A stretch of DNA of 64,000 nucleotides from positions 44,701 through 108,700 of the forward strand of contig CAXEIY010000248.1 of the NCBI GenBank assembly GCA_963996245.1. Direction: 5' to 3'. Shown here piece after piece: positions 15,046 to 34,672 of the stretch (position 1 is its first letter; each line of letters begins with the position of its first letter). This stretch comes from an uncultured Planctomycetia bacterium (GTDB taxonomy: Bacteria; Planctomycetota; Planctomycetia; CAXEIY01). The translations under genes and the position numbers were made by a program. The notes under the pieces were generated by a model. It did not search any database. It saw only the letters and a list, made by a program, of their open reading frames with translations, and was not told the origin of the DNA.

Positions 15046-18000
15046 GTGTCCGTCAGCTTGAATTTCACGGAGCAACCTGTCGTGCCCCTGCCCAGCACTC
15101 ACACCCTGCTGTTCTCAAGGATCTCTGGCACTTCAGGGTTTCGCGATAAATCGATCCTTGACCACCCAACACGCTACCCGGGGTTACTCTGCATCAGTAT
15201 TGTGACATTGCAGTTCCTGTTCGTCTTTGCACAGACTTTGCCAGCACAATCCCAAAGGATCACCCGTGAGTTACCGGCCACCTACCTCGACATTGATTCC
15301 TCAGTAAAGGTCCACTTTAGCCGAGTCGATGCAAGTCTGGAAGGTGGGCACTGGGAAGAAGCCGTCGACATCCTGCAACAGATATGCACTCGTTTTGGTG
15401 ACCAGTTAATTCAAGTGGACACCAACCACTACGTGAATGTCCGAACTTTTTGCCACCTGAAAATTTCGCGTCTTCCACCACCATTTCTCAAAGTTTATCG
15501 CAACCGTGTTGATCCGCTTGCAGAAGAGTGGTTTCAGCAGTCTATTCAACAATCTTCGCGCCAACCGCTGGAACGAATCCTTGAAGAAGCCTTTTGTAGT
15601 TCTTGGGGAGACAATGCTCTGTGGTTGCTGGGTGAACTCTGTTTTGAACAAGGGAATCCCCGGAAATCAGAAAACTACTGGAAACAATTGAAAGGTCTGA
15701 CCTCGTCAGATTTCGATCAAAAACATGGGTTAGTCTATCCGGATACCTCCTTTTCCCCAGCTGCCCTAGAAGCACGCCTCATTCTCTGTCTCATTGCAAC
15801 CGACAGGTCACAGGAAGCACTGACAAGGTTGAACTCCTTTCGGTCAGAATTCTCCCATGCCGAAGGGTTCCTGGCAGGAACAAATGGGCCATTCGTCGAC
15901 ACCCTTTCCGCCCTTCTCAAAAACACCGTGAAGTGGCTACCAGAACAGACCGACAATGACTGGCCAACGTTTGCAGGGAATTTTCAACGCAACAAAGCAC
16001 TTCCTTTTCCGATTGAAATTGGCGCGCTTTCCGGAAAAATAAAACTGAGTAATCCCATTGTTTCAGGAACTCAGAATGGTGGATTTCGCCGTGTGCGGTC
16101 AACCTTATCAGAACCCCAGAACAAGCCTCTCGCTTGGTTTCCCGCGCTTTCGGGTGAACAACTCGTCATCAATAATCGTGGGACCATTCAAAGCTTTGAT
16201 CTCTCTACATGCCAAGAACTCTGGACCAGTACCCTTTCGGAACAGAAGACCAAAAGCACTCCCACCAGTCGTAGACGAAGAAGCACCAACCGCTGGGCTC
16301 GATTCCCATCCCGTCCAAGTTCTCCTAGCTATACTCTTACTGTACACAAGGGGCGCATTTACACGAGTACGACGCCGGTCGTTCAACCACGTAACACCAA
16401 CCGTTTTCGCACCCACCAAACCGTCTCTTCAATCGAATGCCGAGATCTCCGGACGGAAGGCAAACTGTTGTGGTCTATCTCACCTCCGGAATCAGATCTG
16501 ATCTTTGTGGGCAGTCCTGTCATACACGAGAATAAGCTTTTCATAGCTTTACGTCGCAACGGGCCCAACGCACAGATTTTAGTGGCCTGTTATGATGAAC
16601 CTGACCGTGATCTTCAATGGCTACGATTCGTTTGCCAGGCTTCTGATTCCGGTTTTCGTCCTCACACCCGACAAACCCTGCTCACCTATTCATCCGGACA
16701 CATTTTTGTCAGTACAAATCTCGGTTCGGTCGCTTCGATTAATGCCACAAACGGGACTCTTGACTGGGTGTTCACCTATGACCGAAGCGTCGTAAGCAAA
16801 AAAGGGAACTTCTCCTCTCTCGCCGACGACACTCGTGATCCGACGCCGTGTCTAATCGAACAGAACATGGTCATTGCAGCCCCGTCTGACACCTCTTTTC
16901 TTTTCGCGATCCATGCAGGAACCGGTGCTACAGTCTGGCGAACGGATCTCTTATCAGATGTCGAGCACTTGCTTGGTGTGGTGCAAAACCAACTCATTGT
17001 GAGTGGACGTCGACTCTACTCCATTAACATCAACACGGGAAAGTTATCCTGGCATTTTCCTGATTCCAATGACCCTTCTTCGAGAGGCCATGGACGTGGA
17101 ATCATATCCAATGGCCTCATCTACTGGCCTCTACGCGAAGAGATTCGCGTTTTTCATCCTGTATCAGGAAGACAGCCTCTGCGACTACCTTTGAAAATTC
17201 ACGGAGAAACGGGCGGCCATCTGATGGTAGCTGACGGTTTTCTCGTGATTGTACAATCCGATGAAATCGTGGTGTTCTCACACTATGGTCGACTCTTTGA
17301 ACGCTATCAGAAAGATCGCAACGATAGCCCAGGCGATCCGATGCGGCACTACCGACTCGGACGTGCTGCCGAAGCTACCAATCAATGGGAACTGGCCCTT
17401 TCCTCTTACCACCAAACGCTGAGTCTCGCTGATGACAAGACGGCTACCGAAAGCCTCCCCATTGCCACACTTGCCAGACAGAGAAGTTTCCACTTACTGA
17501 CCCGTAAAGCGAACGAATTCAGCGAGACTGACCAACTCCAGCAAGCGGCTGAATTTTACCGTAGGGCTGCAGAGGTTGTGCAGGAACCTCAGCAAAAGAT
17601 CCATGCTTTTCTCAAAGAAGCAGACGTCCGACATCAGTTACAGCACTATCCCGAGATGCTTGCCATCTACCAGAACATTCTAACCACCCCAAGGCTGTCC
17701 GTAGTCCCGATAGCTACAGACTCCAATCTTGCATTTCCAGCACACACAATCGTATCCCAAAAATTGACCGAAGTAATCAACCAGCATGGATTTGATTTCT
17801 ATACACCATTTGAACAACTAGCCTCTGAATTATATAGGAAAGCAGAACATCCCAAAGACATGGAATCGGTAACCCGTCAGTATCCCTGTTCCCAAACAAC
17901 CCTAATCATTCTGAAACACCTTTTAGAACAAAACAGCGAACAACCCACAGAGTTTCTACGCATTGCGCAGAAACTATTGAGCGTGACGACCAACCCTAAA

Positions 18001-19458
18001 CAACGTCTCGATCTTCAGAAAAAACTAGCTACCACTTACCGTAAAGCGGGTTTTACATCGGCGGACCTTTTCGCAGAGATTGACGGACATAATCCTGTCA
18101 CTCCTCCAGCTCCCCTCTTTTCAAAGGATCATTCGAAGCAACTTACGAATAACTTACTTTCGGATCAACAACTGCCGTCTGAATTACTCCTACCCTTTTT
18201 CCGTGGATGGGATAAAGTTCTCTCCCCTGATACTCAAGTGCTGCTTCCGCAGGGAATTCGTCCCAGCTATAATCCTCAGTGGCTCTACCTTAGTGACCAC
18301 AAAAACCACACTCTCTCCTGTGTCAAAACGGACTCTGGCGAAACGGTTTGGACAACGACCGTCCACACCCGCATACAGGAAATCGCTTATGGAGCACATC
18401 GCCTGATCGTACATACCGACAAGAATCTACGCGCCATTAATAATTTGGACGGTTCTTTAATCTGGATTCGTCATTTACGCAAGTCCCGTCAACCTGATCA
18501 CTCCTCTCCTCCAGATTCTCCCAATAGCAGGCTCGTTCCCACGTTTCCTCCTGTACTGATCGATCAACGCCGTGCTTATTGTCACCATGGAGCGGATCTG
18601 ATTGCCATTGATCTATTTACTGGAAAAACACTATGGAACTACCTGGGGAACGGAACCGAACAGTTTTCCGGCCAAACGATGACCGGATTACTGATAGTAC
18701 TCGATGCCAAGGACAACGTAGCACTCGCTATCGATTCCATCGCTGGAACAGTCGCGCATCGTGTCCCCATCCCACACCCGATTACCAAGCATCCCCCGAA
18801 ATGGATATCTGAAAGTCAAATCGGAACCTTTACCGGTCAAAGAACTGTAGAGCTCTTTGATGTTCGTTCAAAGGAAAGACTGTGGCGATACCAAGGTGAT
18901 TTGTCCGGTCGTTGGCCTCAGTTGCTGGGAGACGGGAAACCTCTCTTACTGGCCATTTTCGGAGGCCGACAACTTGTCCGAATCCATTCTGAACAAGGCC
19001 ATGCCATCTGGGAAAAAACCCTCGGAAGCTGGATCGGAACCAATCGTTATCCGATCGAAGATCTCGTACTGATCGATCAAGATTATTTCTATTACAATAC
19101 CAACGGGGTCCTCCATGCCCTCCAACTATCGGATGGAAAGGAACTTTGGAAACAGTTCCTTGGAGGTTCACATGGAATCTGGCGTATCCAACAGGCGGGA
19201 GCCCACCTTATTACATATCCGCTAGAACTCAGAAAAAGTCCACGCTCCCCAAATCCCGGAATGAATGACCCTCCGGACTGGGCCGTCGTGGTATGTGACA
19301 AGAAAACCGGACAACGCGTACAGCAATGGCACTTTTCTGGAAGACAAGGCGTCGCTTCTCTCCTAATGGGCCCCCAACGAGCAGTGGTGATGACTCCTGG
19401 ACATCTCTGGAGTTTCCACCATCGTTCTTTATCACCGATTTCTCTGGCACCTCAATAA
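15046..19458 (+). CDS. large secreted protein with TPR-like segments and two blocks of PQQ-type beta-propeller repeats
   Basis: 1470 aa with a GTG start and a hydrophobic signal-like segment (LLCISIVTLQFLFVFAQTLPAQS). It has recurrent G-x-L/V-W-x PQQ-repeat signatures (ELWTSTL, GKLLWSISP, GTLDWVFTYD, GATVWRTDL, GKLSWHFPD; later GETVWTT, GSLIWIRH, GKTLWNYLG, ERLWRYQG, GHAIWEKTLG, GKELWKQFLG). A TPR-like middle section (RLGRAAEATNQWELALSSYHQTL) separates the two propeller blocks. Confidence 0.6.
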   Translation: MSVSLNFTEQPVVPLPSTHTLLFSRISGTSGFRDKSILDHPTRYPGLLCISIVTLQFLFVFAQTLPAQSQRITRELPATYLDIDSSVKVHFSRVDASLEGGHWEEAVDILQQICTRFGDQLIQVDTNHYVNVRTFCHLKISRLPPPFLKVYRNRVDPLAEEWFQQSIQQSSRQPLERILEEAFCSSWGDNALWLLGELCFEQGNPRKSENYWKQLKGLTSSDFDQKHGLVYPDTSFSPAALEARLILCLIATDRSQEALTRLNSFRSEFSHAEGFLAGTNGPFVDTLSALLKNTVKWLPEQTDNDWPTFAGNFQRNKALPFPIEIGALSGKIKLSNPIVSGTQNGGFRRVRSTLSEPQNKPLAWFPALSGEQLVINNRGTIQSFDLSTCQELWTSTLSEQKTKSTPTSRRRRSTNRWARFPSRPSSPSYTLTVHKGRIYTSTTPVVQPRNTNRFRTHQTVSSIECRDLRTEGKLLWSISPPESDLIFVGSPVIHENKLFIALRRNGPNAQILVACYDEPDRDLQWLRFVCQASDSGFRPHTRQTLLTYSSGHIFVSTNLGSVASINATNGTLDWVFTYDRSVVSKKGNFSSLADDTRDPTPCLIEQNMVIAAPSDTSFLFAIHAGTGATVWRTDLLSDVEHLLGVVQNQLIVSGRRLYSININTGKLSWHFPDSNDPSSRGHGRGIISNGLIYWPLREEIRVFHPVSGRQPLRLPLKIHGETGGHLMVADGFLVIVQSDEIVVFSHYGRLFERYQKDRNDSPGDPMRHYRLGRAAEATNQWELALSSYHQTLSLADDKTATESLPIATLARQRSFHLLTRKANEFSETDQLQQAAEFYRRAAEVVQEPQQKIHAFLKEADVRHQLQHYPEMLAIYQNILTTPRLSVVPIATDSNLAFPAHTIVSQKLTEVINQHGFDFYTPFEQLASELYRKAEHPKDMESVTRQYPCSQTTLIILKHLLEQNSEQPTEFLRIAQKLLSVTTNPKQRLDLQKKLATTYRKAGFTSADLFAEIDGHNPVTPPAPLFSKDHSKQLTNNLLSDQQLPSELLLPFFRGWDKVLSPDTQVLLPQGIRPSYNPQWLYLSDHKNHTLSCVKTDSGETVWTTTVHTRIQEIAYGAHRLIVHTDKNLRAINNLDGSLIWIRHLRKSRQPDHSSPPDSPNSRLVPTFPPVLIDQRRAYCHHGADLIAIDLFTGKTLWNYLGNGTEQFSGQTMTGLLIVLDAKDNVALAIDSIAGTVAHRVPIPHPITKHPPKWISESQIGTFTGQRTVELFDVRSKERLWRYQGDLSGRWPQLLGDGKPLLLAIFGGRQLVRIHSEQGHAIWEKTLGSWIGTNRYPIEDLVLIDQDYFYYNTNGVLHALQLSDGKELWKQFLGGSHGIWRIQQAGAHLITYPLELRKSPRSPNPGMNDPPDWAVVVCDKKTGQRVQQWHFSGRQGVASLLMGPQRAVVMTPGHLWSFHHRSLSPISLAPQ

Positions 19459-19491
19459 TACAACCTACTTTCCAAAGGAGTCTTCGTACTC

Positions 19492-20547
19492 GTGCACAGC
19501 ATAGAAGAACAAGACATGAAAGCTGTCGAACAGCTCAACACGGCATTTCAAAATATCCTCCAAGAACTCGAAAAAGTGATTGTCGGGCAAAAGCCGGTCA
19601 TAGAAGAAATTCTGATTTCCGTATTCGCACAGGGTCACAGCCTTTTAGTTGGGGTACCAGGACTCGCCAAAACACTCTTAATAAACACCCTTGCAGATGC
19701 CTTGTCACTTAGCTTCAACCGCATTCAGTTCACCCCTGACCTAATGCCCTCAGACATCACAGGTACAGATGTCATTCAGGAAAACAAGGAAACGGGAGAC
19801 CGGGAATTCAAATTCCTCAAAGGTCCCCTCTTTGCCAACGTACTTTTAGCTGACGAAATTAATCGCACTCCTCCCAAAACCCAGGCTGCTCTGCTTGAAG
19901 CGATGCAGGAACAACAGGTAACCATAGGGGGGAAAAGGCATCTTCTTGGTCATCCTTTCTTCGTACTAGCAACCCAGAATCCCATTGAACAGGAAGGTAC
20001 TTACCCTCTTCCAGAAGCCCAGCTCGACCGTTTTATGTTCAACATTCTCGTCGACTATCCAACTGAAGATGAAGAACTCCGTATTGTTCAACAAACAACG
20101 ACAGCCAATCGTCCACAAATTAAGGAAGTTCTAACGGGGCCTCAAATCATCGAACTCCAGGAAATTGTCAGAAAAATTCCGATCGCGGATCATGTCATCC
20201 GCTACGCCATGCAATTCACTCGTTTGACTCGCCAGGAAAAGGGCCCTGTACCAGATTTCGTTAAAGAATACGTAAGTTGGGGGGCTGGTCCCCGAGCTAG
20301 CCAATATCTTGTTCTTGGCGCTAAAGCCCACGCTGTTCTACACGGCAGGCATTTCGCAACAACGGAAGATATCCTTCGTGTAGCTGCTCCCGTTTTACGA
20401 CATCGCATTATCACCAATTTTAATGCAGAGGCCGAGGGGATCAAACCAGACGATATTGTTGTTCAACTTTCAGAAGTTATATCCAGAGACTTCGCGACAC
20501 AGCACCACACTCCTGAAACAGAGCCTCTGTCAAGAAATCGCCCCTGA
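19492..20547 (+). CDS. MoxR-family AAA+ ATPase
   Basis: Walker [12 protein letters not shown], Walker [24 protein letters not shown], and a sensor region. Its length and layout are typical of MoxR/RavA-like chaperones that partner with vWA proteins. Confidence 0.9.
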
Positions 20548-20674
20548 CAACCACGCTTACCCTGAATGCCATTGGGTAATAGAGAGGGTTCCCAATCAAA
20601 TCGTCACAGCTACATCCACTCCCTGCCGCACGCGCCTTTATAACTGACCTTTTCCTAATCTGAACGGCATCTCT

Positions 20675-21580
20675 GTGAACGCGGAAACTGATTCATCTTA
20701 CCTTGACCCCGAAGTACTATCCAGAATCAAAGGGCTCGACCTGCGAGCTCGGCTTATCGTTGAAGGATACGTCTCAGGAATGCATCGCAGTCCTTATCAC
20801 GGGGTTTCCGTCGAATTTGCCGAACACCGTGAATACGTTCCGGGAGATGACCTTCGCCATGTTGACTGGAAGGTGTGGGGACGCAGTGACAAGTATTACC
20901 TCAAACAGTATGAAGAGGAAACCAATCTACTCGTCCATATGGCTGTCGATACCAGCGAATCCATGAGATATCGATCCAAACACGTTTCCATGAGTAAGCT
21001 TCAATATGCTGAATGTGTAGCCGCTTCTCTGTCCTACCTTACACTGCAACAACAAGACAGTGTGGGATTGACTACGTTTGACGAAGAAATCCGAAAACAC
21101 GTTCGCGCCTCCAGTAATGCCTCTCATCTCAATCAACTAATCCATGCTCTGGAGCAATCGGTACCAGAACAAAAATCGACTATTGGTCCCATATTGCACA
21201 CTCTGGCTGAAAGGCTTGCTCACCGAGAACTGGTGATCATACTCAGTGACCTATTCGATAACCCTGCTTCTTTGATTTCGGGAATGCAGCACCTTCGACA
21301 TCGCAAACATGATGTCATTGTATTCCATGTACTGGATCCTGCAGAAATAGAATTTCCCTTTCAGGAACATACACTCTTTCGAGGAATGGAAGGCCATCCT
21401 GACCTGCTTGCTAATCCGGCAACACTGCGAGCAGCTTACCAAACGGAACTCGATCAGTTTCTAAAGGAGGTTAGGAAGGGTTGCCAGTTGAATAAGATCG
21501 ATTATGTCCTTCTGAGAACGGACCAGCCTCTTGACATTGCCCTCACCGGATATTTGACCAGACGACAATTACAAAAATAG
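20675..21580 (+). CDS. DUF58-family protein (vWA-like, MoxR partner)
   Basis: Contains GYVSGMHRSPYHGVSVEFAEHREYVPGDDLRHVDWKVWGRSDKYYLKQYEEE, a DUF58 hallmark. It lies directly downstream of the MoxR ATPase. Confidence 0.85.
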   Translation: MNAETDSSYLDPEVLSRIKGLDLRARLIVEGYVSGMHRSPYHGVSVEFAEHREYVPGDDLRHVDWKVWGRSDKYYLKQYEEETNLLVHMAVDTSESMRYRSKHVSMSKLQYAECVAASLSYLTLQQQDSVGLTTFDEEIRKHVRASSNASHLNQLIHALEQSVPEQKSTIGPILHTLAERLAHRELVIILSDLFDNPASLISGMQHLRHRKHDVIVFHVLDPAEIEFPFQEHTLFRGMEGHPDLLANPATLRAAYQTELDQFLKEVRKGCQLNKIDYVLLRTDQPLDIALTGYLTRRQLQK

Positions 21581-21598
21581 TTATCTCGAGTCACGTCA

Positions 21599-23836
21599 AT
21601 GATCATCAATCTGTTTCTTGCCATTGGATTTGCTGACCCATTTTTCCCATCCCTGGGTCCCTGGTTGGGCACCGCCCTGCTTGGTACTTGCCTTGCAGCG
21701 ATTCCCGTACTCATCCATCTACTGAACAAATCCCGATTCATTCAGCTGGAATGGGCAGCCATGACTTTTCTCATGGCTGCTGTTCGCAAAAATGCACGTC
21801 GGGTACGTCTCCAGCAACTAATTCTTCTTATCATTCGAGTCCTGCTCATCCTTCTGGTAATCAACGCGTTGGCTCAGCCCTACCGCGAACACGAAGGATT
21901 TACTTTTCAGAATAACACACGGAACCACAAGATTATCGTTATTGATTCTTCCCTCAGCATGGGCTTTCAGAGCAACCAAGAAAGCTCTTTTGAACAGGCC
22001 AGAAATCTTGCCATCCGAATACTCAAAGAATCCAACAAAGGAGATCCTGTCAGCATTCTCACCATGGGCTCTCCAGCACGACTGGTGAATGGACCTTCTT
22101 ATGATCACTCGATGGTCCACAATCAACTCAAGATATTGAAAAACAGCTATGAAACCGCCGATCTGGTTTCCACGTTGTCACAAATTGAAGTCACCCTCAA
22201 ACTCCTCGGAGACCAACCGCTTCTGAACGAAGTCTATTTGATAAGCGATCTGCAAAAATCAAACTGGTTGTACGAAAACAGATCACCCAATTATGACAAA
22301 GAGGTCGGCCAACTCGCAGGTCGTATCGATGACCAGGCAGCCATCATTGTGCTCGATGTAGGACAAACAGAAAACGAGAATCTAGGTGTCATCGCCGTAT
22401 CGTCAGACAATCCTCTGGTGACACCTGACACGCCAACCACTCTAACAGGAACCATTGGCAACTTCAGTCGTAAGGTACAGAACCCGTTAGTCGAACTCTG
22501 GGTCAACCAACAGATGACAGCCCGTCAAACTGTTTCGATTGCACCCTATGAAATGGCTAATGTCCGTTTTCATCCCACCTTCCCACGTGAGGGAAACCAC
22601 TCCGTACAAATTCGCATTCCCGTTGATCAACTACCTGCTGACAACCAGAGGTGGATGGCGGTACCGGTTGAGTCACAATTTGAAATTCTTTGTGTGAATG
22701 GAAAGTCCGCCGGACGTTTTTTTCAACGAGCCACATCCTATCTGCAAACCGCACTTGCCCCTCAACCAGCTTCTGCCTTTTCTTCTACTCCCATCCGTCC
22801 GATTATTGTTCCAGAATCCAGATGGGATGAAGCGATCCAAAATTATTCGTGTATTTTCTTCTGCAATGTCGGTCAGTTTACAGAAAATGAATTCGCCCTC
22901 CTGAAACAACATCTTCAAGAAGGAGGAGCGATCATCTGGTTCCTTGGTGATCAGGTAATAAGCGAAAACTACAATCGCATCCTTTACCGTGGTGGCGATG
23001 GTGTTTTCCCTGTTGAACTGGGCAATCGTGTCGGTGACGCAGATGCCATGAACCAAATATTTTTATTTGATCCCAAGGAATATGAACATGACATTATTAA
23101 ACCTTTTCAATCTGAACCCCGCTCAGGACTCGTAACCGCTGGTGTTTATTCCTATATAAAAAGTACTTTACCGCCTAATCAGAAGTCACAACTTGTCTTA
23201 TCTTACAATAACGGCGATCCGGCAATCATCGAACAATCGATTGGCAAAGGCAGAAGCATTGTCGTCACTACCGCTGCTGACAGCACTTGGTCAAACTGGC
23301 CCCAATCAAATCCCAGTTATGTGCCTCTCATTCATCAGCTACTTCACTATTCCATTGAAGACCGTCTTCAAAAACAAACAACACAAGTGGGGAACCCTAT
23401 CCGGCTCCTGTTACCAGATCCCCGCACCCGCCAAGTCGACATTCTAACTCCCACTGGGATATCCGAATCGATTGACCTGTCAACACCTGGTGTTCTTTTC
23501 TATCCAGCACCCTCTCTTCAAACTACAGTCTCTCCTGGAATCTATCGCGTACAAGATGCCGTCTCCAACACCAGTTCATCACCCTCCATCGCATTTGCTG
23601 TCAACCATCCCGAACGCGAAAGTGATCTCACTAAATTAACTCACCAAGAACTAGTGGCTCAGGTTTGGCCGGGTATTGATTTTGTCTATCTCACCGACTG
23701 GATGGACAACGATACAAACCAGAAGGTAAATATCCGTCACCGAGGAATGCTCCACGAATTACTGATTTACATTGTATTGGCACTGATAATGGCAGAGTCT
23801 TTTCTTGCATGGCGATTCGGCCCCTCCTACAGATAA
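21599..23836 (+). CDS. BatA-like protein: aerotolerance-regulator N-terminal TM domain plus vWA domain
   Basis: BatA_N-like N-terminus (LLGTCLAAIPVLIHLLNKSRFIQLEWAAMTFL). vWA MIDAS motif HKIIVIDSSLSMG (DxSxS). A C-terminal TM (LLIYIVLALIMAESFL) and a GATase1/ThuA-like stretch (GGAIIWFLGD). Confidence 0.8.
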   Translation: MIINLFLAIGFADPFFPSLGPWLGTALLGTCLAAIPVLIHLLNKSRFIQLEWAAMTFLMAAVRKNARRVRLQQLILLIIRVLLILLVINALAQPYREHEGFTFQNNTRNHKIIVIDSSLSMGFQSNQESSFEQARNLAIRILKESNKGDPVSILTMGSPARLVNGPSYDHSMVHNQLKILKNSYETADLVSTLSQIEVTLKLLGDQPLLNEVYLISDLQKSNWLYENRSPNYDKEVGQLAGRIDDQAAIIVLDVGQTENENLGVIAVSSDNPLVTPDTPTTLTGTIGNFSRKVQNPLVELWVNQQMTARQTVSIAPYEMANVRFHPTFPREGNHSVQIRIPVDQLPADNQRWMAVPVESQFEILCVNGKSAGRFFQRATSYLQTALAPQPASAFSSTPIRPIIVPESRWDEAIQNYSCIFFCNVGQFTENEFALLKQHLQEGGAIIWFLGDQVISENYNRILYRGGDGVFPVELGNRVGDADAMNQIFLFDPKEYEHDIIKPFQSEPRSGLVTAGVYSYIKSTLPPNQKSQLVLSYNNGDPAIIEQSIGKGRSIVVTTAADSTWSNWPQSNPSYVPLIHQLLHYSIEDRLQKQTTQVGNPIRLLLPDPRTRQVDILTPTGISESIDLSTPGVLFYPAPSLQTTVSPGIYRVQDAVSNTSSSPSIAFAVNHPERESDLTKLTHQELVAQVWPGIDFVYLTDWMDNDTNQKVNIRHRGMLHELLIYIVLALIMAESFLAWRFGPSYR

Positions 23837-23908
23837 TATAACCCACTTACTTTTCCATTTGACGAAAGACACAACGACTTCCCGTCACTACTTTGGAACG
23901 GTTCTGTA

Positions 23909-26302
23909 ATGGATTTTCTTCACAAAATAATTGAACCATGGTTAGGTGTGGAACCCGAGAAGTCGGGTGAACATATCAGCTGGACTATCGAGCACAGTTT
24001 CCCCTGGCCTCCGTGGATCGTGTTACTTTTCCTCTTAGCCACACTCTTTGTAATTGTTTTCTTCTACCGTAAAGAACCCACCAGCATCCCCACTCTTTGG
24101 AAGTGTCTTCTTGCAGGACTTCGCTTTTCATTAATTCTCGTTGTGCTGCTTATGTTAAGCCAATTACAGTTGAACATTGATCGCTCGAAACCTGCCCCCA
24201 TGGCAGTTCTTTGGGACCACTCCGGCAGTATGGCTATCGTCGAACAGCAATACCCGAAAGATTACCATGAACCGCTCCGAAAACTTTTAGGAGATACCCC
24301 TCCGGACACTCATTCCCGCTGGGAAATCGCCAAGCAGTGGCTTTTACAAGATAACGGATCCTTTATCAAATCACTGGTTACAGATACCCCCTTGCAACTT
24401 TATCTGGTTGCCAGTAGTGCGCAGCTGATCCATGATTTTCTGGATGAAACGAGTATCGAAGAATCTCTGGACACATTACACAAACTAAAACCACTGGACC
24501 GTCAAAGTAACAGTCGACTCGGCGACTCTCTAAGACAGGTCTTGAACGATTTTCGTGAAAATCCTCCAGCCGGAGTCCTGTTTCTGACGGATGGAATTAA
24601 TACCGATGGAGAATCACTCCAGAAAGCAGCCGAGTATGCCAAACAACTGCAAGTACCTATCTATCCACTAGCAATAGGAAATCCTAATCCTTTACTGGAT
24701 ATTCAACTTCGTAATATCCTTGCTGACGAGATTGTCTTCGAAGGAGATTTAATCACCTTTGAAGCAACTGTCACCGCCCAGGGCCTAGAAGGACACGAAA
24801 TGGAAGTCGTGCTGTACAAGGCCTCTTCTGAGATCCCTCTCAACAAACAATCCCTTGTTCTTGGCCCGGACTACTCCCCTCTCCCAATACGGATAAGCCA
24901 TCCCGCTGATACTCCGGGAGACCACACTTTCGAACTCCGGATTACTCCCCATGATCAGGAATTGCGGACCGACAACAACGTACTCCGTAAACGAATCTCC
25001 ATTCGTTCAGAAAAACTGAAAGTTCTGCTAACAGAAAACTCACCTCGTTATGAATTTAGATACCTGAAACACTTACTTGAACGGGATTCTTCCATCGCCT
25101 TGAATACGGTTTTGCAACAGGCAGATCCAGACTATATCGAGGAGGATCGAAGTGCGATCCCGTTATTCCCTTCAAATCGTGAGCAACTATTTGAATACGA
25201 CGTGCTTGTCTTCGGAGACCTGGATCCCTCTTTTCTGACTCCACGGGTCCTCCAAAATATCGCAGACTTTGTACAGGAAAAAGGAGGAGGACTCCTTGTC
25301 ATAGCAGGACCACACCATACTCCATCCGCCTACCGAGGAACCCCTTTGGAATCGATTCTTCCCATTGATCTGAATCAGGTCACATTGACAGATTCCAATT
25401 CTATTCCCGAGAGTTACAAACCGCTATTAACAACAGAAGGACGTTTCAGCAACCTTTTCCATTTCGGGAACAGTGGTACAGACAGTAAGCAGATATGGGA
25501 CGCACTACCTGACTTTTTTTGGCTTCTCGAAACGCCGGATCTCAAACCCGGGGCCGTTCCCCTCGTCGTTCATCCTTCCAAGATGGGCAGCCAAGGTCCA
25601 CTTCCCGTTATGGTATGGCAGTTTGCTGGAACCGGCAAAGTTCTCTTTCACGCAACTGACGATATCTGGCGTTGGCGTTTTCGATCTGGTGACGCCTATC
25701 TTAACCACTTCTGGATTCAAGCCATTCGTTTCCTGAGTCGGTCAAAGTTGGTAGGCCGGGATATCAAGGCAGAACTCACAACGTTCCCTATGAGTACATC
25801 CTGGGATGCTCCGTTACACATTCGTGTGCGTTTTTTTGATGAAACCCAGATTCCTCAAACCGATGATCAAGTGGAAGTCTCTGTCAATCGTGACGGGGCC
25901 CCTATGCCTTCACTCCAACTGAAGCAATCTCCAAACAATCGCAATGTTTTCGAAGGACTTGTAACGGACCCGGGGGAAGGACACTACCGCGTTAAGCTCA
26001 CGTCTCCGATTCTTTCCGGGCCTGTACCAACAGATGATTTCGATGTTATTGCACCCCCTGGAGAGATGGAGAACATTCAGACCAACTTACCTCTATTGGA
26101 AAGTATTGCAAAACAAACTGGGGGAAAATTTTTTACGCTACTAAATGCCAGTCAGATTCCGAAACATATTCCTGTTGGGCAACGCATATCTCTTGAAACA
26201 GACCAACCCATCCCCTTGTGGAACCGCTGGCCTGTGCTGTTGCTATTTCTCTCACTACTGATCTGTGAATGGCTTTTGAGAAAGTACAAACGACTGTTAT
26301 AA
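23909..26302 (+). CDS. vWA-domain membrane protein, paralogous in layout to the upstream BatA-like gene
   Basis: N-terminal TM helices and a MIDAS-like motif MAVLWDHSGSM (DxSxS). A ThuA/GATase-like segment (VLVFGDLDPSFLTPRVLQNIADFVQEKGGGLLVIAGP). A C-terminal TM (PVLLLFLSLLICEWLL). Confidence 0.65.
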   Translation: MDFLHKIIEPWLGVEPEKSGEHISWTIEHSFPWPPWIVLLFLLATLFVIVFFYRKEPTSIPTLWKCLLAGLRFSLILVVLLMLSQLQLNIDRSKPAPMAVLWDHSGSMAIVEQQYPKDYHEPLRKLLGDTPPDTHSRWEIAKQWLLQDNGSFIKSLVTDTPLQLYLVASSAQLIHDFLDETSIEESLDTLHKLKPLDRQSNSRLGDSLRQVLNDFRENPPAGVLFLTDGINTDGESLQKAAEYAKQLQVPIYPLAIGNPNPLLDIQLRNILADEIVFEGDLITFEATVTAQGLEGHEMEVVLYKASSEIPLNKQSLVLGPDYSPLPIRISHPADTPGDHTFELRITPHDQELRTDNNVLRKRISIRSEKLKVLLTENSPRYEFRYLKHLLERDSSIALNTVLQQADPDYIEEDRSAIPLFPSNREQLFEYDVLVFGDLDPSFLTPRVLQNIADFVQEKGGGLLVIAGPHHTPSAYRGTPLESILPIDLNQVTLTDSNSIPESYKPLLTTEGRFSNLFHFGNSGTDSKQIWDALPDFFWLLETPDLKPGAVPLVVHPSKMGSQGPLPVMVWQFAGTGKVLFHATDDIWRWRFRSGDAYLNHFWIQAIRFLSRSKLVGRDIKAELTTFPMSTSWDAPLHIRVRFFDETQIPQTDDQVEVSVNRDGAPMPSLQLKQSPNNRNVFEGLVTDPGEGHYRVKLTSPILSGPVPTDDFDVIAPPGEMENIQTNLPLLESIAKQTGGKFFTLLNASQIPKHIPVGQRISLETDQPIPLWNRWPVLLLFLSLLICEWLLRKYKRLL

Positions 26303-26351
26303 ATGAAGTGTAGGAAGTGCTGAAACTTCGGACAGGTACCAGAAGGATGGA

Positions 26352-29300
26352 TTGTATATTACCTGTAGCAAAAGATTTCAGATTGACAGCAGGATTTCGA
26401 GAAAAATGGCCCACCTTTTACAAGAACAAGTTCGTGCTGTCGGACATCGTATCCGTCGGTTGTTGTTTCTGTACGGTGCCTGTTATACCTTTTGTTTTGC
26501 GGTAACACTGCTTCTCGTTATTGGCTTTATTGACTGGGGACTTCACCACCTGCAATTCACTTTCATTGACGATCGTGGCATTCGGATTCTCGTTACCCTG
26601 TTTATTGCCTTGTCTTCCAGTTGGTGTTTCTGGAAATTCGTGGTACGTCCACAATGTATACGTCTCAGCGATATTCATCTGGCACGCTGGGTTGAAACCC
26701 GATATCCACAACTTAGGGACAGTCTGACAAGTGCAATCCATTTTCTGGAAAACGAGGAACGTAATCTTCTCTTCGGTTCTGATTCACTCCGACAAGCCGT
26801 CATTTCAAAGACTACCCATCAACTGGAAAATCTGAATCTCAAAGATGTGCTCGAGACTTTTCAGATCAAGAGAGCTGTGGTGGGAGCCCTCACGGCCATT
26901 TCCGTCAGCGTTGCCATCGCATACTTAAGCCCGATTTATGCCAGTCGCGCTCTGGCCAGAATCACCAACCCATTCTCAACAACTCCCTGGCCAAAGCAGA
27001 CTGAACTAAAGTTGCTGAAAGTCTCTCGACGGGTCGTTAAAGGCGATCCTTTTCATATGGAAGTCCAAGTTAAGCGTGGACTCGTGCCACGACAGTCCTT
27101 CATCGATTACCAACTGCCGGGCCCGACCTCCACCATCACCACAGCCCCCCTGATGCGCAATGGTTCCATTCTGAAAGCAACTCGGAAATCACCACAGTCC
27201 TCGTTCGACGTTCGCATCCGTGCAGGTGATGACTTAATCGACTGGCAGAATATCACCGTTATTGATCCCCCTCGGCTGGAAACCTTACAAGCTCAATTAT
27301 TTTATCCTCCGTACACACGCAAGGAACCGGAAACCTTGGCGGTGAACCGAGGCAATATCAATGCACTTCCGGGAACACGTGTCCTAGTACACGGATCTTC
27401 TAACAAACCGCTCCGTTCTGCGGCACTCACGGTTAATGGGCATACCACCCCGATCGTGCCAAATAAAAAGTCCCGTTCTGTGGCAACGGAGTTCACAGTC
27501 AACAACAATGGTAGCTACAGCCTCAGTCTTACTGATCGAGAGCCTGAAGCCTTCAACAATCATCGAAGTAGGGTCGAATACGAAATCCAAACAATTCCAG
27601 ATCTCATGCCGGAAGTTACTTTTGAAGAGCCGACTTCTCACCAGCAGGTCACTGCTCACGCTCGCGTTCCATTACGAATCATGACTCGTGACGACTGGGG
27701 AATTGCTACCATCACTCTGCGATATCAACAAGAAGACACCGCCACTGACATTCCGTCAAGTATTCTTCTTTACGATCAGGCAGATCGTCCCTTACAAATG
27801 TCCACGGACTTTATCTGGCACCTGGATCAACTTCCGCTAAACCCCGGTTCGACGCTTAACATACATGCTGAAGCAACGGACTACGATGACATCAATGGCC
27901 CCCATACAGGAAAAAGTGAGTTACTCCGGTTGGAGATTGTTTCTGAACAGGCCATTCTGGATCAAGTTTCAGATCGACAGACTTCTCTGAAACACGACCT
28001 TCAGCGACTCTTGCAAATGCAGGAACTAGCACAGGGTCAGATCCGCGATCTGCAACGTCAAATCACTTTTGCCACGCGGCTTACCGCTCCCGACATTGAT
28101 ACGCTTGAGTCAGCTGAAACAGCTCAGCAACATGTATCACGCGGACTGACAAACCACTCCGATGGAGCCCTGGGAAGAATCCAACAATTATCTGATCAAC
28201 TCAAGATCAACCGGATTAATGATCCCGAAACACAAACACGTCTTGAAACGATGTCCAACTTAATTCGTCAGTTACAGGAAACTTCTCTGCCAACAATAGA
28301 GCAGGAGCTAGTGCGAGCACGAAAAGCTTCCATCAACGAACTTTCCAATCCATCCTCTGTAACGCCAACACCCCCAATAGACAACCGTGAACAATCCGAT
28401 TCAAACCCATCTCTGAAACTGCCACAAAATTCACTCCCCTCCGAATCCAGAACACCCACCCTCCAAACCCGATCAACCGTGGCCCCACCCTCACCGAGCA
28501 TCAAGGCATCTTCTTATTCCCAAACAACACAAACGGCCCTCGGCCGGGCAGAAACACATCAACAAGAAGTCATTGCATCCATTGAAACCATGCTTGGAGA
28601 CGTATCGGCGTGGGCTGACAAAAGAGAATTACTCCGTGATATAGACGAGCTCATTGGCAGTCAAAAAAAGTTGCTACAGGAAACTGCCTCATTGACTCAG
28701 CAAGCCTCCGAATCCTTTGAAAAGGGCTCGCAGCAAGAAGCGACGCTTCAACGCCTTGCTGGTCGGCAGATGGAGCTTTCCTCACGCACACAGCGATCAC
28801 TGCGAAAACTTGAAATTCCACCATCATCGACTGCTGACAGCAAAGCGATTGCTCCTGATGCCTTCAAAGAAGCGGCTGATTTTGCCCGCAATAAAGCCCT
28901 TACCGAAACCATGCATCAAGCAGCAGAGCATCTGAGCAATCAACGTATGGGGCAGGCTCTACAAACCGAACAGGAAAGTCTCACTCACCTCGAAGCACTC
29001 AAAGAAGTGCTGAATGATGACAGGGACAAACAATTGTCCCGACTGGCAAAACAGCTTCGTGAAGCAGAGCAACAACTGGAAGGTATCCGTACACAGCAAA
29101 AACTACAACGCGACAAAACACAGCAGACCACTACAATCGGTGAATCCAAAGAGCATAAAAACGCACTGGAATCACTTCGTAAATCACAACAGAATATTCA
29201 GAAGAGTACCAGACAACTAAGCGCAGAGTTACAGCAAATAGACGCGTTTCAAGCTGGGCAATCAACGCAACAGGCTGCCGCCCAGATGACCGAAGCGGAT

Positions 29301-30068
29301 CAATTACTGGAACAAAATAAAACCGAACCATCAATTGAACAGCAGGATAACGCACTACAGTCACTTGAAAGCGCTCAAAAACAGCTTGCTGACGCCAGAC
29401 GCCGTGCGGAATCACAACGCACGCTGGAACAATTTGCCCAGCTCCAGAATCAAATCGCAACCGTACGAAAGCGCCAAAATGCTATTTACAAACAAACCGA
29501 GCAACTGCAACTCGATTATTCAGAACAAGGAAGATGGACACGACGAACCCTGAAAACTCTGCGACAATCAACCCAGGAACAGAATGCCCTCAGGCAACAG
29601 GCTGACACATTAACCGAACAACTGACTGGAGCACCTGTTTTCCATCTGTCATTGTCGGGAGCGACGCGCAAAATGGAGGATGCGGCTCAGCGGCTCAGCG
29701 ACCGTAAAACCGATTCCCTGACACAAAAAACGCAGCAGGAGGTTATCCGCCGGCTGACAGATATCCTTAATGCACTTCAGGCAACAGCCGCAGACAAATC
29801 TGCTAATAATGAAGGGAATGCAAATGAATCGGGAGGTGGTCAAGGAGGTGGATCTCCGGCAAACAACGGCATTCCACCTGTGACACAGTTAAGATTACTC
29901 AAAAGCCTCCAACAAGGTGTCAATAATCGTACTCGTGTGTTAGATCAATCCAAAGGTCAGAATCCCGAAATGGGAATTGAAGATGACCTGCTTTTTGATC
30001 AGCTTAGTGAAGAACAAGGCCAGATCGCAGATCTCCTTATGGAACTACTTCGTCCCGCATCAGATTGA
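26352..30068 (+). CDS. giant membrane-anchored coiled-coil protein (DUF4175-like), terminal large gene of the MoxR/BatA operon
   Basis: 1238 aa with two N-terminal TM helices. The long C-terminal half is rich in Q/E/L/R heptad-like coiled coil (LQRLLQMQELAQGQIRDLQRQITFA...), ending in a G-rich segment (ESGGGQGGGSP). Confidence 0.55.
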   Translation: MYITCSKRFQIDSRISRKMAHLLQEQVRAVGHRIRRLLFLYGACYTFCFAVTLLLVIGFIDWGLHHLQFTFIDDRGIRILVTLFIALSSSWCFWKFVVRPQCIRLSDIHLARWVETRYPQLRDSLTSAIHFLENEERNLLFGSDSLRQAVISKTTHQLENLNLKDVLETFQIKRAVVGALTAISVSVAIAYLSPIYASRALARITNPFSTTPWPKQTELKLLKVSRRVVKGDPFHMEVQVKRGLVPRQSFIDYQLPGPTSTITTAPLMRNGSILKATRKSPQSSFDVRIRAGDDLIDWQNITVIDPPRLETLQAQLFYPPYTRKEPETLAVNRGNINALPGTRVLVHGSSNKPLRSAALTVNGHTTPIVPNKKSRSVATEFTVNNNGSYSLSLTDREPEAFNNHRSRVEYEIQTIPDLMPEVTFEEPTSHQQVTAHARVPLRIMTRDDWGIATITLRYQQEDTATDIPSSILLYDQADRPLQMSTDFIWHLDQLPLNPGSTLNIHAEATDYDDINGPHTGKSELLRLEIVSEQAILDQVSDRQTSLKHDLQRLLQMQELAQGQIRDLQRQITFATRLTAPDIDTLESAETAQQHVSRGLTNHSDGALGRIQQLSDQLKINRINDPETQTRLETMSNLIRQLQETSLPTIEQELVRARKASINELSNPSSVTPTPPIDNREQSDSNPSLKLPQNSLPSESRTPTLQTRSTVAPPSPSIKASSYSQTTQTALGRAETHQQEVIASIETMLGDVSAWADKRELLRDIDELIGSQKKLLQETASLTQQASESFEKGSQQEATLQRLAGRQMELSSRTQRSLRKLEIPPSSTADSKAIAPDAFKEAADFARNKALTETMHQAAEHLSNQRMGQALQTEQESLTHLEALKEVLNDDRDKQLSRLAKQLREAEQQLEGIRTQQKLQRDKTQQTTTIGESKEHKNALESLRKSQQNIQKSTRQLSAELQQIDAFQAGQSTQQAAAQMTEADQLLEQNKTEPSIEQQDNALQSLESAQKQLADARRRAESQRTLEQFAQLQNQIATVRKRQNAIYKQTEQLQLDYSEQGRWTRRTLKTLRQSTQEQNALRQQADTLTEQLTGAPVFHLSLSGATRKMEDAAQRLSDRKTDSLTQKTQQEVIRRLTDILNALQATAADKSANNEGNANESGGGQGGGSPANNGIPPVTQLRLLKSLQQGVNNRTRVLDQSKGQNPEMGIEDDLLFDQLSEEQGQIADLLMELLRPASD

Positions 30069-30865
30069 GAAACCACGTGATTGACTCACTGCTTTTATCA
30101 CATACCCTGGGATTCTGCCTGATTTCAGGATTTAACAGCCCTTGGGATCCATCCCATTCGGAATTAATCCTTCAGACCTCTTCTGAATCCGGTTATGAAC
30201 TCAAAGTTCAAATCGATCGGGAACCTCCTGTTCCAGATGTCACTGACAGTTTAATCCCAGGTATTTTTCAACCAGAGAACACGGCTGCAGTATACGATGA
30301 TCCTGATGGAAATCCTCTCCAAAGAAAGCGGAACCATCTCCTGAAAAATCACGAACCTGATTCGGTATTACCGAAACAAGCGAAGCAGGGTAATCCCTTG
30401 ATCCATATCGGACAACATATGCAGGCTGTGAAAAAGCGGCTTGCAGAGTCTCATAGCGGAAAGGCTACTCAGAAGATGCAGGCGCAAATTGTTGAGGATC
30501 TCAACAATTTGCTGTCAAAACTTGAAAGTTCCGAACAACAACAACCCTCCTCCATGCAACGACAGCCACCTTTACCGTCCCAGAAGCCAGAAAAACCGCA
30601 GAATTCAACAAGCCAGAAAACTCCGTCTCAGACATCGCAATCTGCGAAACAGGCAGGTCAAACAGCTGCGGCCGAACACATTCAGAGAAATTCCAGTCGT
30701 GCTCTGCTTAAAGCAATCTGGGGGCATCTCCCTGATCGTCTGCGTGAACAGCTCGAACAAAGAGCCGATCTCGTTTTCCTGCCACAGTATGAATTACTAA
30801 TTGAAAGTTACTTTGAAGCCCTCCTGGATAAGAACACGTCCTCACCACAACCCCCTTCACGTTAG
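30065..30865 (+). CDS. hypothetical S/Q/P-rich low-complexity protein; start overlaps the stop of the preceding gene (TTG/GTG start uncertain)
   Basis: 266-aa ORF with a hydrophobic N-terminus (LLLSHTLGFCLISGF) and a low-complexity middle (QQQPSSMQRQPPLPSQKPEKPQNSTSQKTPSQTSQS). Its 4-nt overlap with the upstream ORF suggests translational coupling. Confidence 0.4.
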   Translation: MRNHVIDSLLLSHTLGFCLISGFNSPWDPSHSELILQTSSESGYELKVQIDREPPVPDVTDSLIPGIFQPENTAAVYDDPDGNPLQRKRNHLLKNHEPDSVLPKQAKQGNPLIHIGQHMQAVKKRLAESHSGKATQKMQAQIVEDLNNLLSKLESSEQQQPSSMQRQPPLPSQKPEKPQNSTSQKTPSQTSQSAKQAGQTAAAEHIQRNSSRALLKAIWGHLPDRLREQLEQRADLVFLPQYELLIESYFEALLDKNTSSPQPPSR

Positions 30866-31085
30866 CCCTTCTGGCGGCTGTACCGACACGACTCCCCTCG
30901 GGTAAGCAGGTCACACTCAAAACGTGTTCCGTACCCTGCCCATAGGGATGCCGGTTTCGGACAATTGGATCATCTTGCCGCCACGCTCTGGGGAGCGTAT
31001 CATACGAGGCAATTCTTATTTCGATTGTTCATGCCTTACGGCGCAAACGCTATCATTTAGATTACTGACCAAACAGGATGACCTG

Positions 31086-31433
31086 ATGTACATGGTATGG
31101 TTACCTTCAATCTGGCTGGCCCAAGATGGGGGAGATGCAAATCCTCCTTTTACAGAAACAATTTTATTCCCGATGATCCTGATCATGGGCATGTTTTTCT
31201 TCTTCCAGATAATGACACAGAGGAAAAAGGGCAAACAACGGGACGCCATGCTGAGTGGGTTAAAAAAGAACGACCATGTTATCGCAGCCGGTGGCATATA
31301 CGGTGTGATAACCAACGTCAATCCGGATGACCCACATGTCATGATACGGGTAGATGACACCACAAACTGTAAACTACGAATAGCTAAAGCCTGTATTCAG
31401 GAACTCATAAATAACGCTGAAGCCAACGAGTGA
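31086..31433 (+). CDS. yajC: preprotein translocase subunit YajC
   Basis: MILIMGMFFFFQIMTQRKKGKQRDAMLSGLKKNDHVIAAGGIYGVITNV is the YajC signature. The track ORF starts at 30924, but the ATG at about 31086 (MYMVW...) gives the typical roughly 115-aa size. It lies immediately upstream of secDF. Confidence 0.8.
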   Translation: MYMVWLPSIWLAQDGGDANPPFTETILFPMILIMGMFFFFQIMTQRKKGKQRDAMLSGLKKNDHVIAAGGIYGVITNVNPDDPHVMIRVDDTTNCKLRIAKACIQELINNAEANE

Positions 31434-34500: not shown

Positions 34501-34672
34501 TATGGTCGTCGTGATAATGTTCATTGCAGGAGGAGAAGGGGTCCGGGGATTTGCCTATTGCCTGCTAGTTGGTGTCGTGACCGGAACCTACAGTTCCATC
34601 TATATTGCAAGCCCCGCTCTCCTATGGATGTCCAAATTCAAGATTTTCGCGGGATCAGAACAACGTTTTTAA
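31520..34672 (+). CDS. secDF: protein translocase SecD-SecF fusion
   Basis: 1050 aa. SecD TM bundle (GLAGLVLSVGMSVDANVLIFERLREE) and SecF module (IALIHDVLISLGMIAVS...TFDRLREIRG), with the large periplasmic domain between them. Confidence 0.9.
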   Translation: MPPSLATRNPPSFSEPMQTISFYLWLITLLLGPLLLAGILSRLLNIRTYLIKLAIVFYALAFLVVGPLLVEQRTPRFGIDLKGGTILVYEMDQDKIPADMSGRELMEKMTAAVIRRVNPAGTDDVIVRAAGSESLEVIVPGTTAQEINNYKNRITNIGNLEFRILANRKNPTLRRWIELTESKSDQPARYPFPSSVLQPVRLETETGEPQTEERAVASWFKVNTDEAARKNLTETIDGVFNSQNLSTPVDSDSRTALSDLELSPAFWTDLEQAISEPPRDFFSIPDDHKTQIEQGTVAGLYHYVKGARTLYLDRDVAWNIDPEQGLMVLVVEPLRDSEVRNQVRYLPVTGEFLKRASQSVDSDGTPAVSFNLDSQGATRFLQLTRAFQPDADGSKSRLAILLNNEIQSAPSLNEPISNNGQISGNFTIKEAEDLIAVLNAGALPAALNPTPAHEFGIGPTFGKDTVDKGSKAIIFGMAAVLLFMLSYYWLGGFVADFALVLNLSMTLGLMILIDASLTLPGLAGLVLSVGMSVDANVLIFERLREEQARGSSFRVAIQNGFDRARRAIVDANVTTLLTALILYSIGTDQVKGFAVTLIIGILMSMYTALFVTRLVFEVAEQKHWVTKFSAVNLIGTPSLDFVGKNRFCAVLSIILIVSGCGLFFSGGVEKNLDIDFTGGTAVGIRFNENSLSTSATLRDQLSEIPDLAIEELQFANRPTGERFIIRTSDQDATKVKGIINKSLGDQLVRVHLQEIEPLPQDNVTSDDPIELQRQTWRLRFDEEVSVTAIDEMFTVILAQSALPNANPQWQTSDSTDTDSGLSKQLTLSVSADVTATNIEPLLEQLKTQLEEEPIFEQTLNFGSRVASEMQTRALFAIVLSLMGIIGYLTFRFQKLIFGLAAVIALIHDVLISLGMIAVSSHFESMGLSIEQFKINLPMIAAFLTLIGYSLNDTIVTFDRLREIRGKSPDINSEMVNLTINQTLSRTVLTSLTTLMVVVIMFIAGGEGVRGFAYCLLVGVVTGTYSSIYIASPALLWMSKFKIFAGSEQRF

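Follow-up and report, generated by a model that had tools for sequence, protein, structure and literature searches.

Our analysis of a 64,000-nucleotide stretch of DNA from an uncultured Planctomycetia bacterium (contig CAXEIY010000248.1 of assembly GCA_963996245.1, positions 44,701 to 108,700 of the forward strand; we call the whole stretch the window and number it from its first letter) indicates that seven genes on its + strand, spanning 15046-30865, are an operon-like cluster whose order is kept across Planctomycetota. The cluster is an elaborated form of the widespread module that joins a MoxR-proper ATPase, a DUF58 protein and a BatA_N protein, and not a new kind of system. Operons of the MoxR–DUF58–BatA type occur in many phyla, and their mutants have envelope, stress or virulence phenotypes. 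We consider it reasonably probable that the products of the planctomycetal cluster work as one inner-membrane, periplasm-facing MoxR–VWA machine or scaffold of this class, serving the cell envelope. The seven genes are the following, with the lengths of their products in amino acids (aa) and their profile matches (E values, or bits against the family threshold).

15046..19458, + strand: pyrroloquinoline quinone (PQQ)-like propeller/TPR gene, 1470 aa; PQQ_2 5.1e-34 and TPR.
19492..20547, + strand: MoxR, 351 aa; AAA_3 4.8e-63, AAA_lid_2 7e-19.
20675..21580, + strand: DUF58 protein, 301 aa; DUF58 2.2e-42, VWA_2 8e-11.
21599..23836, + strand: BatA-type protein, 745 aa; BatA_N (PF07584) 1.2e-10, TIGR02226 2.4e-16, VWA_2 3e-10.
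23909..26302, + strand: 797-aa VWA protein; matches below threshold only (VWA, 22.7 against 23.8 bits; DUF7408).
26406 (or 26352)..30068, + strand: a protein of 1220 (or 1238) aa, called the giant protein below; DUF4175 1.9e-9, 36.5 against 27.3 bits.
30065 (or 30077)..30865, + strand: a protein of 266 (or 262) aa without a family, called P266 below.

All long open reading frames (ORFs) called between 15046 and 37407 lie on the + strand. The ORF coordinates and single strand given in an earlier note on this sequence are right, as is the gap of 33 nucleotides that it reported between the PQQ gene and MoxR (19458 to 19492). The window proteins were scanned with Pfam and NCBIfam profiles; MoxR, DUF58, the BatA_N and VWA domains of the 745-aa protein and DUF4175 all score above the Pfam thresholds, and these scans agree with the note in recognising a MoxR/DUF58/BatA-type module. 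Marine metagenome contigs, TARA Oceans samples among them, are identical or near-identical to the window, while the closest 797-aa relative outside the same population has 44% identity and no species-level genome is close. On one contig of that population, otherwise collinear (L004:2813-5034, ENA ERZ23495236), the BatA-type gene is called as two, of 447 aa and 262 aa; a frameshift, a premature stop or a faulty assembly of a single sample might account for this.

That the genes belong together is seen most directly in related genomes. With each species represented by one genome, a scan turned up at least 571 loci that encode a 797-family protein. We kept 80 of these for analysis, all of them from Planctomycetota or from unclassified metagenome-assembled genomes, and every related genome with a taxon name belongs to Planctomycetota. 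In the kept loci ORFs were called and searched with the window proteins and with family hidden Markov models, and positions were taken relative to the 797-aa gene. Upstream genes are counted out of 41 loci, and downstream genes out of the 51 loci with enough downstream sequence.

Upstream of the 797-aa gene: PQQ, MoxR and DUF58, 28/41 loci.
Upstream of the 797-aa gene: BatA-type, 32/41 loci.
Downstream of the 797-aa gene: giant, 37/51 loci.
Downstream of the 797-aa gene: P266 domain, 35/51 loci.
Downstream of the 797-aa gene: prenyltransferase/SQHop-like alpha/alpha-toroid, 27/51 loci.
Downstream of the 797-aa gene: NPCBM, 26/51 loci.
Downstream of the 797-aa gene: yajC or secDF, 0/51 loci.

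The conserved order is PQQ – MoxR – DUF58 – BatA – 797 – giant – P266 (– prenyltransferase-like – NPCBM), and it is seen in Singulisphaera acidiphila DSM 18658, Isosphaeraceae, Pirellulales, Planctomycetaceae and Thermoguttaceae. All nine genes stand in this order in S. acidiphila DSM 18658 (locus L007, Pfam-confirmed) and in locus L005, where the cluster ends with a toroid protein of ~350-415 aa and an NPCBM protein of ~400 aa (L005:14517-16823; L007:16973-19497). By tblastn neither of these last two genes is anywhere in the window, which holds the first seven genes only. Reduced and rearranged forms occur as well. Locus L087 is a bare four-gene core, MoxR – DUF58 – BatA – 797-like, whose fourth gene is of the 797 family (E 1.6e-72); locus L090 reads DUF4159 – MoxR – DUF58 – BatA – giant-like; and a Puniceicoccales contig has MoxR – DUF58 – BatA. 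In locus L006 the order is PQQ – toroid – BatA – 797 – giant N-terminal homolog – ... – NPCBM, with MoxR and DUF58 absent there; three tandem trypsin/PDZ (HtrA-like) protease genes follow that cluster (L006:16392-20472).

These counts bear out the attachment, made in the earlier note, of the giant and of the low-complexity protein (our P266) to the MoxR/vWA genes, since the linkage is conserved and the refuting condition that the note had named does not hold. They also promote the PQQ-propeller gene, which the note had mentioned as an upstream neighbour outside its coordinates, to the conserved first gene of the cluster, its orthologs lying directly upstream of MoxR in L005, in L007 and in 28/41 loci overall. 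Near its N-terminus (aa 47-65) the 1470-aa product has a hydrophobic segment, either an anchor or a signal; it also has TPR-like helices and two regions of PQQ_2/BamB-like beta-propeller. Its best match is the BamB-type PQQ_2, whereas its score against TIGR03075 is 23.6 bits, far below the cutoff of 480.05; the propeller is BamB-like and not a quinoprotein, and the PF01011 match covers only ~70 of 595 positions.

The ATPase has the features by which MoxR-proper (MRP) proteins are recognised: an AAA_3 core aligned over the full model (1-131 of 131), the AAA_lid_2 domain and, read in the translation, the Walker A sequence GVPGLAKT and the Walker B sequence LLADEINR. The nearest solved structure is 2r44 (4.5e-81), and the ortholog in L005 shares 71% identity. 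MoxR is paired with a gene for a VWA co-factor, the DUF58/VWA_2 gene directly downstream, both here and in 28/41 related loci. The DUF58 protein is a soluble VWA-like co-factor: it matches positions 1-209 of the 216 in the DUF58 model, and its VWA-like core carries DTSES as the string of the metal-ion-dependent adhesion site (MIDAS). Gene callers on the identical contigs start it at an internal ATG, which gives 266 aa and affects window positions 20675-20780; since its 35 N-terminal residues are conserved in the L005 ortholog (aa 4-297 against 2-295, 64% identity), we prefer the start at GTG 20675. Because no transmembrane (TM) or other hydrophobic segment was found in either protein, MoxR and DUF58 are both predicted to be cytoplasmic.

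The 745-aa and 797-aa proteins are, by profile comparison, ancient full-length paralogs. The earlier note had suggested tandem paralogy from their similar layout, and it is the comparison of profile with profile that alone decides the matter. Pairwise BLASTP of the two proteins gives nothing significant (E 1.3), and the profile of the 797-aa family (alignment A1, 32 sequences) finds the lone 745-aa sequence only weakly, at 40.9% probability. However, when A1 is aligned by hhalign with the profile of the 745-aa family (alignment A2, 27 sequences) the two match at 99.9% probability (E 2.8e-33), and the 627 collinear columns extend from TM2 as far as the C-terminal TM. Both of the MIDAS strings that the note had pointed out, DSSLSM and DHSGSM, are found, and the D/S/S residues together with a distal D are invariant in both alignments: D103, S105, S107 and D228 of the 797-aa protein in A1, and D116, S118, S120 and D217 of the 745-aa protein in A2. 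An ancient pair of paralogs makes a 745-aa/797-aa heterodimer likely.

The 745-aa protein opens with a two-TM hairpin that has a strongly basic loop, continues with VWA, CARDB-like and GATase1-like domains and closes with a TM at the C-terminus. With N-terminal TM helices at 23-41 and 74-92 and a TIGR02226 score of 59.8 bits against a cutoff of 23.05, it is a double-TM BatA_N protein, with which its 797-aa paralog aligns at the profile level only. The 797-aa protein has a two-TM hairpin, VWA, CARDB/Ig, GATase1/ThuA-like and beta-sandwich domains and a C-terminal TM. The note's assignment of a vWA domain to both proteins stands as it is for the 745-aa protein; the match of the 797-aa protein itself is below the Pfam threshold (22.7 against 23.8 bits), and its domain is set by the family and by predicted structure. 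In the AlphaFold2 model of this protein (mean predicted local distance difference test score, pLDDT, 86.3) structure searches identify a CARDB-type Ig domain (3idu) and more beta-sandwiches, and the GATase1/ThuA-like fold is present, as the note had proposed. The top Foldseek match of the model is OST48/Wbp1 (7oci_G, 2.5e-10), which is laid out likewise, with a GATase1-like domain followed by a beta-sandwich and, at the C-terminus, a TM. The likeness to GIFT/GATase1-like luminal domains (OST48/Wbp1, IFT52, ThuA, STM3548) is structural only, at 12-22% identity, and brings no evidence for a role of the cluster in glycosylation. No Cys or His is invariant, or nearly so, in A1 or A2; hence the GATase1-like domain is no amidotransferase, and we rejected a class I glutamine amidotransferase enzyme, whose Cys-His-Glu triad is missing from both alignments.

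The most likely start of the giant protein is ATG 26406, which gives 1220 aa (1238 aa if TTG 26352 is used), because its orthologs align from residue 1 of this form and the gene callers on the identical contigs also give 1220 aa. Residue numbers below are those of the 1238-aa ORF, of which residues 39-1238 were modelled by AlphaFold2 with 18 homologs (mean pLDDT 79.2). The model, together with Foldseek for the beta domains, gives the following parts.

40-66: TM1.
75-95: TM2.
Between TM2 and TM3: a helical segment of ~78 aa.
174-205: a third hydrophobic helix (TM3).
217-529: three Ig/FN3-like beta domains, ~310 aa.
532-1233: nineteen helices of 13-69 residues, ~700 aa.
668-718 (S/P/T-rich) and 1149-1172 (G-rich): disordered linkers.

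The giant was described in the earlier note as a double-TM protein whose extracytoplasmic part is almost entirely coiled coil. That description is only partly right: there is a third hydrophobic helix, ~310 aa are Ig/FN3-like domains, and the two disordered linkers interrupt the ~700 aa of helices. Foldseek matches of the beta region are to SiiE BIg domains (2e-7), to the MG domains of complement C3/C4/C5 and to triples of fibronectin FN3 domains; the likeness to MG domains, those of complement and of alpha-2-macroglobulin, we regard as the generic similarity of Ig folds. Within the gene, AT skew reaches +0.30 at window positions 28001-30000 against values mostly within about ±0.1 in the neighbouring 2-kb bins, and this spike falls on the helical part, which is rich in Q, A, L and E.

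The DUF4175 label applies to a limited part of the giant. The match covers aa 315-483, inside the Ig-like region, which is the sole part to match DUF4175 (PF13779), and it takes in 152 of the 825 model positions (192-343), short of most of the model. The Singulisphaera ortholog scores 28.4 bits against the threshold of 27.3, and orthologs with ~30% identity stand at the same position in related loci. Against NCBIfam, TIGR02302 included, the giant has no match at E<=0.01. The DUF4175/TIGR02302 family presumably shares with the giant a layout in which N-terminal TM helices precede a long extracytoplasmic region of low complexity, rich in Q and G; the P266 module, whether separate or fused, lies outside the Pfam model. 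The DUF4175 label on AdvA of Acinetobacter points to the N-terminal TM region of AdvA, and we did not use it as functional evidence.

P266 is S/Q/P-rich and has no Pfam or NCBIfam match. The earlier note let its start overlap the stop of the giant, which holds for TTG 30065 (4 nucleotides over the TGA); GTG 30077 (262 aa), 8 nucleotides past the stop, is equally possible, and the sequence alone does not separate the two. When 1.84 billion representatives were searched exhaustively with HMMER, 1815 relatives came up at E<=1e-3, and 384 at E<=1e-10. Conservation lies in residues ~100-255, with the motifs PLxRIGRxM...TQxxQxxIVxDL and WGHLPxRxREQ...FLPxYExLIExYF. A signal-peptide-like hydrophobic segment stands at the N-terminus of 114/138 family members, the copy in the window falling slightly under the cut (1.92 against 2.0). 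The P266 domain is fused to the C-terminus of the giant in 11 of the related loci fetched, for example in P0268 (Pirellulales, MBN1854216.1) and P0269 (Thermoguttaceae, MEN6449904.1). In addition, residues 107-227 align by hhalign with the helix/low-complexity linker/helix module at the C-terminus of the giant (87.7%, E 3.4e-6). By this alignment P266 is a duplicated copy of that module, and it is probably an exported extension of the giant that is sometimes fused to it. Sequence searches of the PDB with the 745-aa protein, with DUF58 and with the P266 family gave noise only (Fab chains, a Huntingtin polyglutamine construct).

How would these proteins be placed in the membrane? Across the families, the net charge is +7.0 in the hairpin loop and +2.3 in the C-terminal tail of the BatA-type protein, +1.2 and +3.5 in the same two places of the 797 family, and +3.3 at the N-terminus of the giant. 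Under the positive-inside rule these charges would put the large body of each of the three membrane proteins on the periplasmic side. We infer that the 745-aa and 797-aa proteins are anchored at both ends in the cytoplasmic membrane, with periplasmic VWA–Ig–GATase1-like bodies, and that the giant keeps its N-terminus and the ~78-aa TM2–TM3 segment in the cytoplasm and its Ig-like domains and ~700 aa of helices in the periplasm. This placement agrees with the signal peptides of P266 relatives, with the giant–P266 fusions and with the topology of BB0173, a Borrelia BatA-domain protein which experiments place in the inner membrane, with its VWFA domain in the periplasm (PMC5700661).

On this topology the machine might work as follows. 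A MoxR hexamer and its DUF58 VWA co-factor would be an ATP-driven chaperone that assembles or remodels a cytoplasmic-membrane complex, acting through conserved cytoplasmic loops, namely the basic hairpin loop of the BatA-type protein and the TM2–TM3 segment of the giant. Through the two periplasmic MIDAS sites there would be metal-dependent binding to acidic ligands on partner proteins; the propeller/TPR protein would be the likeliest partner or client, and the alpha/alpha-toroid and carbohydrate-binding NPCBM proteins of the relatives may join the complex. P266 would extend the periplasmic helices of the giant. The physiological role would be cell-envelope biogenesis or integrity rather than catalysis, a non-enzymatic reading that we adopt because invariant Cys and His residues are missing from both family alignments.

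Among known systems, Rhizobium leguminosarum RL3499–RL3502, described as a 'broadly conserved operon', has a four-gene core of like order (MoxR – DUF58 – TIGR02226/BatA_N protein – second large membrane protein). We compared it by gene order only, and the order is found both in the window and in L087. To that core the cluster adds the propeller/TPR gene, the DUF4175 giant and P266, and the relatives add the toroid and NPCBM genes. The reported envelope and cell-morphology role of RL3499–RL3502 fits the role that we propose here: a related Rhizobium operon has envelope and morphology defects as cited in PMC5700661, and RL3501 appears as a growth-defect gene in PMC4255674.

A number of points weigh against an envelope machine of this kind. 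In several relatives (e.g. L027, L039 and L064) the 797–giant–P266 genes are kept without a nearby MoxR; adjacency of the ATPase is thus not universal. The topology, as we infer it, depends on the charge rule and on the fusions, and TM3 of the giant is weakly hydrophobic (1.68). Moreover, the class offers no explained precedent for a cytoplasmic ATPase acting on periplasmic domains. Promoter and terminator scans gave no operon boundaries, with 14 promoter-like sites against the 19.2 expected from shuffled sequence. Finally, our search of the literature, with most subscription journals outside it, found no description of the planctomycetal seven-to-nine-gene form, of the VWA paralogy or of the P266 family.

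The envelope reading can be narrowed by way of the Mxa system, the sole homologous module whose biochemical output is defined, namely the incorporation of Ca2+. According to PMC12276312, MxaRSACKL loads Ca2+ into a periplasmic PQQ propeller enzyme, methanol dehydrogenase, and all six Mxa accessory proteins are required for this incorporation. With this precedent, action on a periplasmic propeller is therefore plausible, and the cluster could be an Mxa-like system for the maturation, metal-loading (Ca2+ or Mg2+) or folding of the propeller/TPR protein. It does match the accessory content of Mxa, with MoxR, DUF58 and two membrane VWA proteins beside a periplasmic PQQ-type propeller; its MIDAS residues are invariant; and the propeller gene, adjacent in 28/41 loci, stays with the membrane genes even in the MoxR-less L006. 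However, a BamB-like propeller so far below the TIGR03075 cutoff does not qualify as a PQQ alcohol dehydrogenase client, no metal site was identified, and neither were equivalents of MxaA, MxaK and MxaJ in the cluster. Since an Mxa-like function would also leave the giant, P266, toroid and NPCBM genes unexplained, we regard it as unlikely.

The envelope reading can also be extended. In this extension the seven to nine genes would encode a phylum-wide trans-periplasmic machine particular to the unusual envelope of planctomycetes, in which the cytoplasmic MoxR–DUF58 motor drives, across the cytoplasmic membrane, the assembly or remodelling of a very long helical DUF4175/P266 strut, the two VWA/GIFT-like adaptors, each anchored twice, hold the strut, and the propeller/TPR protein and the glycan-binding partners (NPCBM, toroid) are positioned at the cell wall or outer membrane, the whole being a morphogenetic or division-related scaffold in FtsZ-less bacteria. 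We offer this as a speculation, and as a rather unlikely one.

A different alternative is a Bat-type aerotolerance or oxidative-stress system that protects against oxygen or heat stress. MoxR, DUF58 and a protein with BatA_N and VWA are common to the cluster and to the Bat operons of Bacteroidota and spirochaetes. Yet canonical BatA is much shorter, at ~330 aa, whereas the BatA-type proteins here have 745-797 aa with GATase1-like bodies; the VWA proteins of the cluster further add CARDB and beta domains and a second anchor, and the giant helical protein is an addition too. A study of the Leptospira Bat proteins in oxidative stress reportedly had a negative outcome, and several of the relatives listed, we assume, are aerobic heterotrophs, which likewise speaks against this alternative. 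BatB, BatC (TPR), BatD (PF13584) and BatE (TPR/SH3) were not found by Pfam in the cluster or in ten other large ORFs of the window. The earlier note had linked the module to the aerotolerance phenotype of Bacteroides: the class is indeed common to both, but this is not a strict Bat operon, and the phenotype is therefore not simply transferable. Deletion of moxR in Riemerella lowers heat and oxidative stress tolerance, and the related operon there serves stress tolerance and virulence (PMC11834572); the Bacteroides phenotype itself is known through citing papers (PMC5700661). On balance a Bat-type function seems to us quite improbable.

Still less credible is a MoxR–vWA–beta-propeller ternary conflict system of the kind described by Kaur, Burroughs, Iyer and Aravind in 2020, which that paper (PMC7159879) reports in planctomycetes. 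The MoxR protein does match PF20030 (bpMoxR) at 42 bits, and the 1470-aa TM/TPR/propeller protein resembles the described third component in general layout. But in the ternary systems, as PMC7159879 describes them, vWA is strictly fused to a C-terminal beta-propeller of ~four blades and the P-loop of MoxR is often GXXXTAKS. Here there is no vWA–propeller fusion: DUF58, at 301 aa, has no propeller, and what follows the VWA domain of the 745-aa and 797-aa proteins is CARDB, GATase1-like and beta-sandwich domains. The P-loop is GVPGLAKT, AAA_3 scores 211 bits against the 42 of PF20030, and none of the seven proteins matched PADLOC at E<=1e-3. Also unlike the mobile, variable conflict loci, the cluster has a fixed order throughout the phylum and lies among housekeeping genes. 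We rejected the defence-system reading on the missing fusion, the P-loop and the PADLOC result. A MoxR–vWA–transglutaminase (TGL) degradation system (PMC3495828) was set aside as well, there being no TGL protein.

Downstream of P266, on the same strand in the window and in the identical contigs, two further genes adjoin the cluster.

30924-31433, + strand: YajC, 169 aa; profile match.
31520-34672, + strand: SecDF, 1050 aa; profile match.

From this placement the earlier note had drawn a hint of secretion, but the adjacency is lineage-specific, with yajC or secDF in 0/51 related loci and prenyltransferase-like and NPCBM genes as the usual downstream neighbours, and we reject an accessory role in Sec-dependent export as extremely improbable.

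Several other features of the window deserve mention. A 620-aa ORF at 45601-47463 (- strand) is an unusual fusion of FlgI (flagellar P-ring, 4.1e-18) with HEAT repeats (1.4e-11), and it adjoins SMC rather than flagellar genes. The 1058-aa ORF at 37424-40600 (- strand), with PurS, FGAR-AT linker and AIRS/AIRS_C domains, appears by its domain content to be a fused PurS–PurL FGAM synthase. At 6316-7635 (- strand) lies a gene for a DUF1501 protein (1.7e-105), a family which we take to be typical of Planctomycetota; in L087 the neighbour of a DUF1501 gene encodes PSCyt1/PSCyt2/PSD1 domains. Rfam and ARAGORN detected a single RNA gene in the window, a tRNA-Met (CAT) at 62584-62655 (- strand). GC skew is negative in all 2-kb bins of 1-64000 (-0.05 to -0.35), regardless of gene strand, and grows more negative toward the 3' end, where GC content rises to 0.53.

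A specialist would not find the cluster itself surprising; its value lies in the proposed client, the proposed structural output and the cultured host. The planctomycetal version of the module is unusually complete, in that it offers candidates both for the client (the propeller/TPR protein) and for the structural output (a DUF4175 strut with a detachable P266 module). Cultured strains such as Singulisphaera acidiphila DSM 18658 carry the cluster, and what we propose for it is therefore directly testable. If confirmed, an envelope machine of this kind would explain widespread genes without an assigned function, those of the DUF58, DUF4175, BatA_N and P266 families. And were even the trans-periplasmic strut to prove true, it would offer the entire MoxR–DUF58–BatA class its first mechanistic handle.

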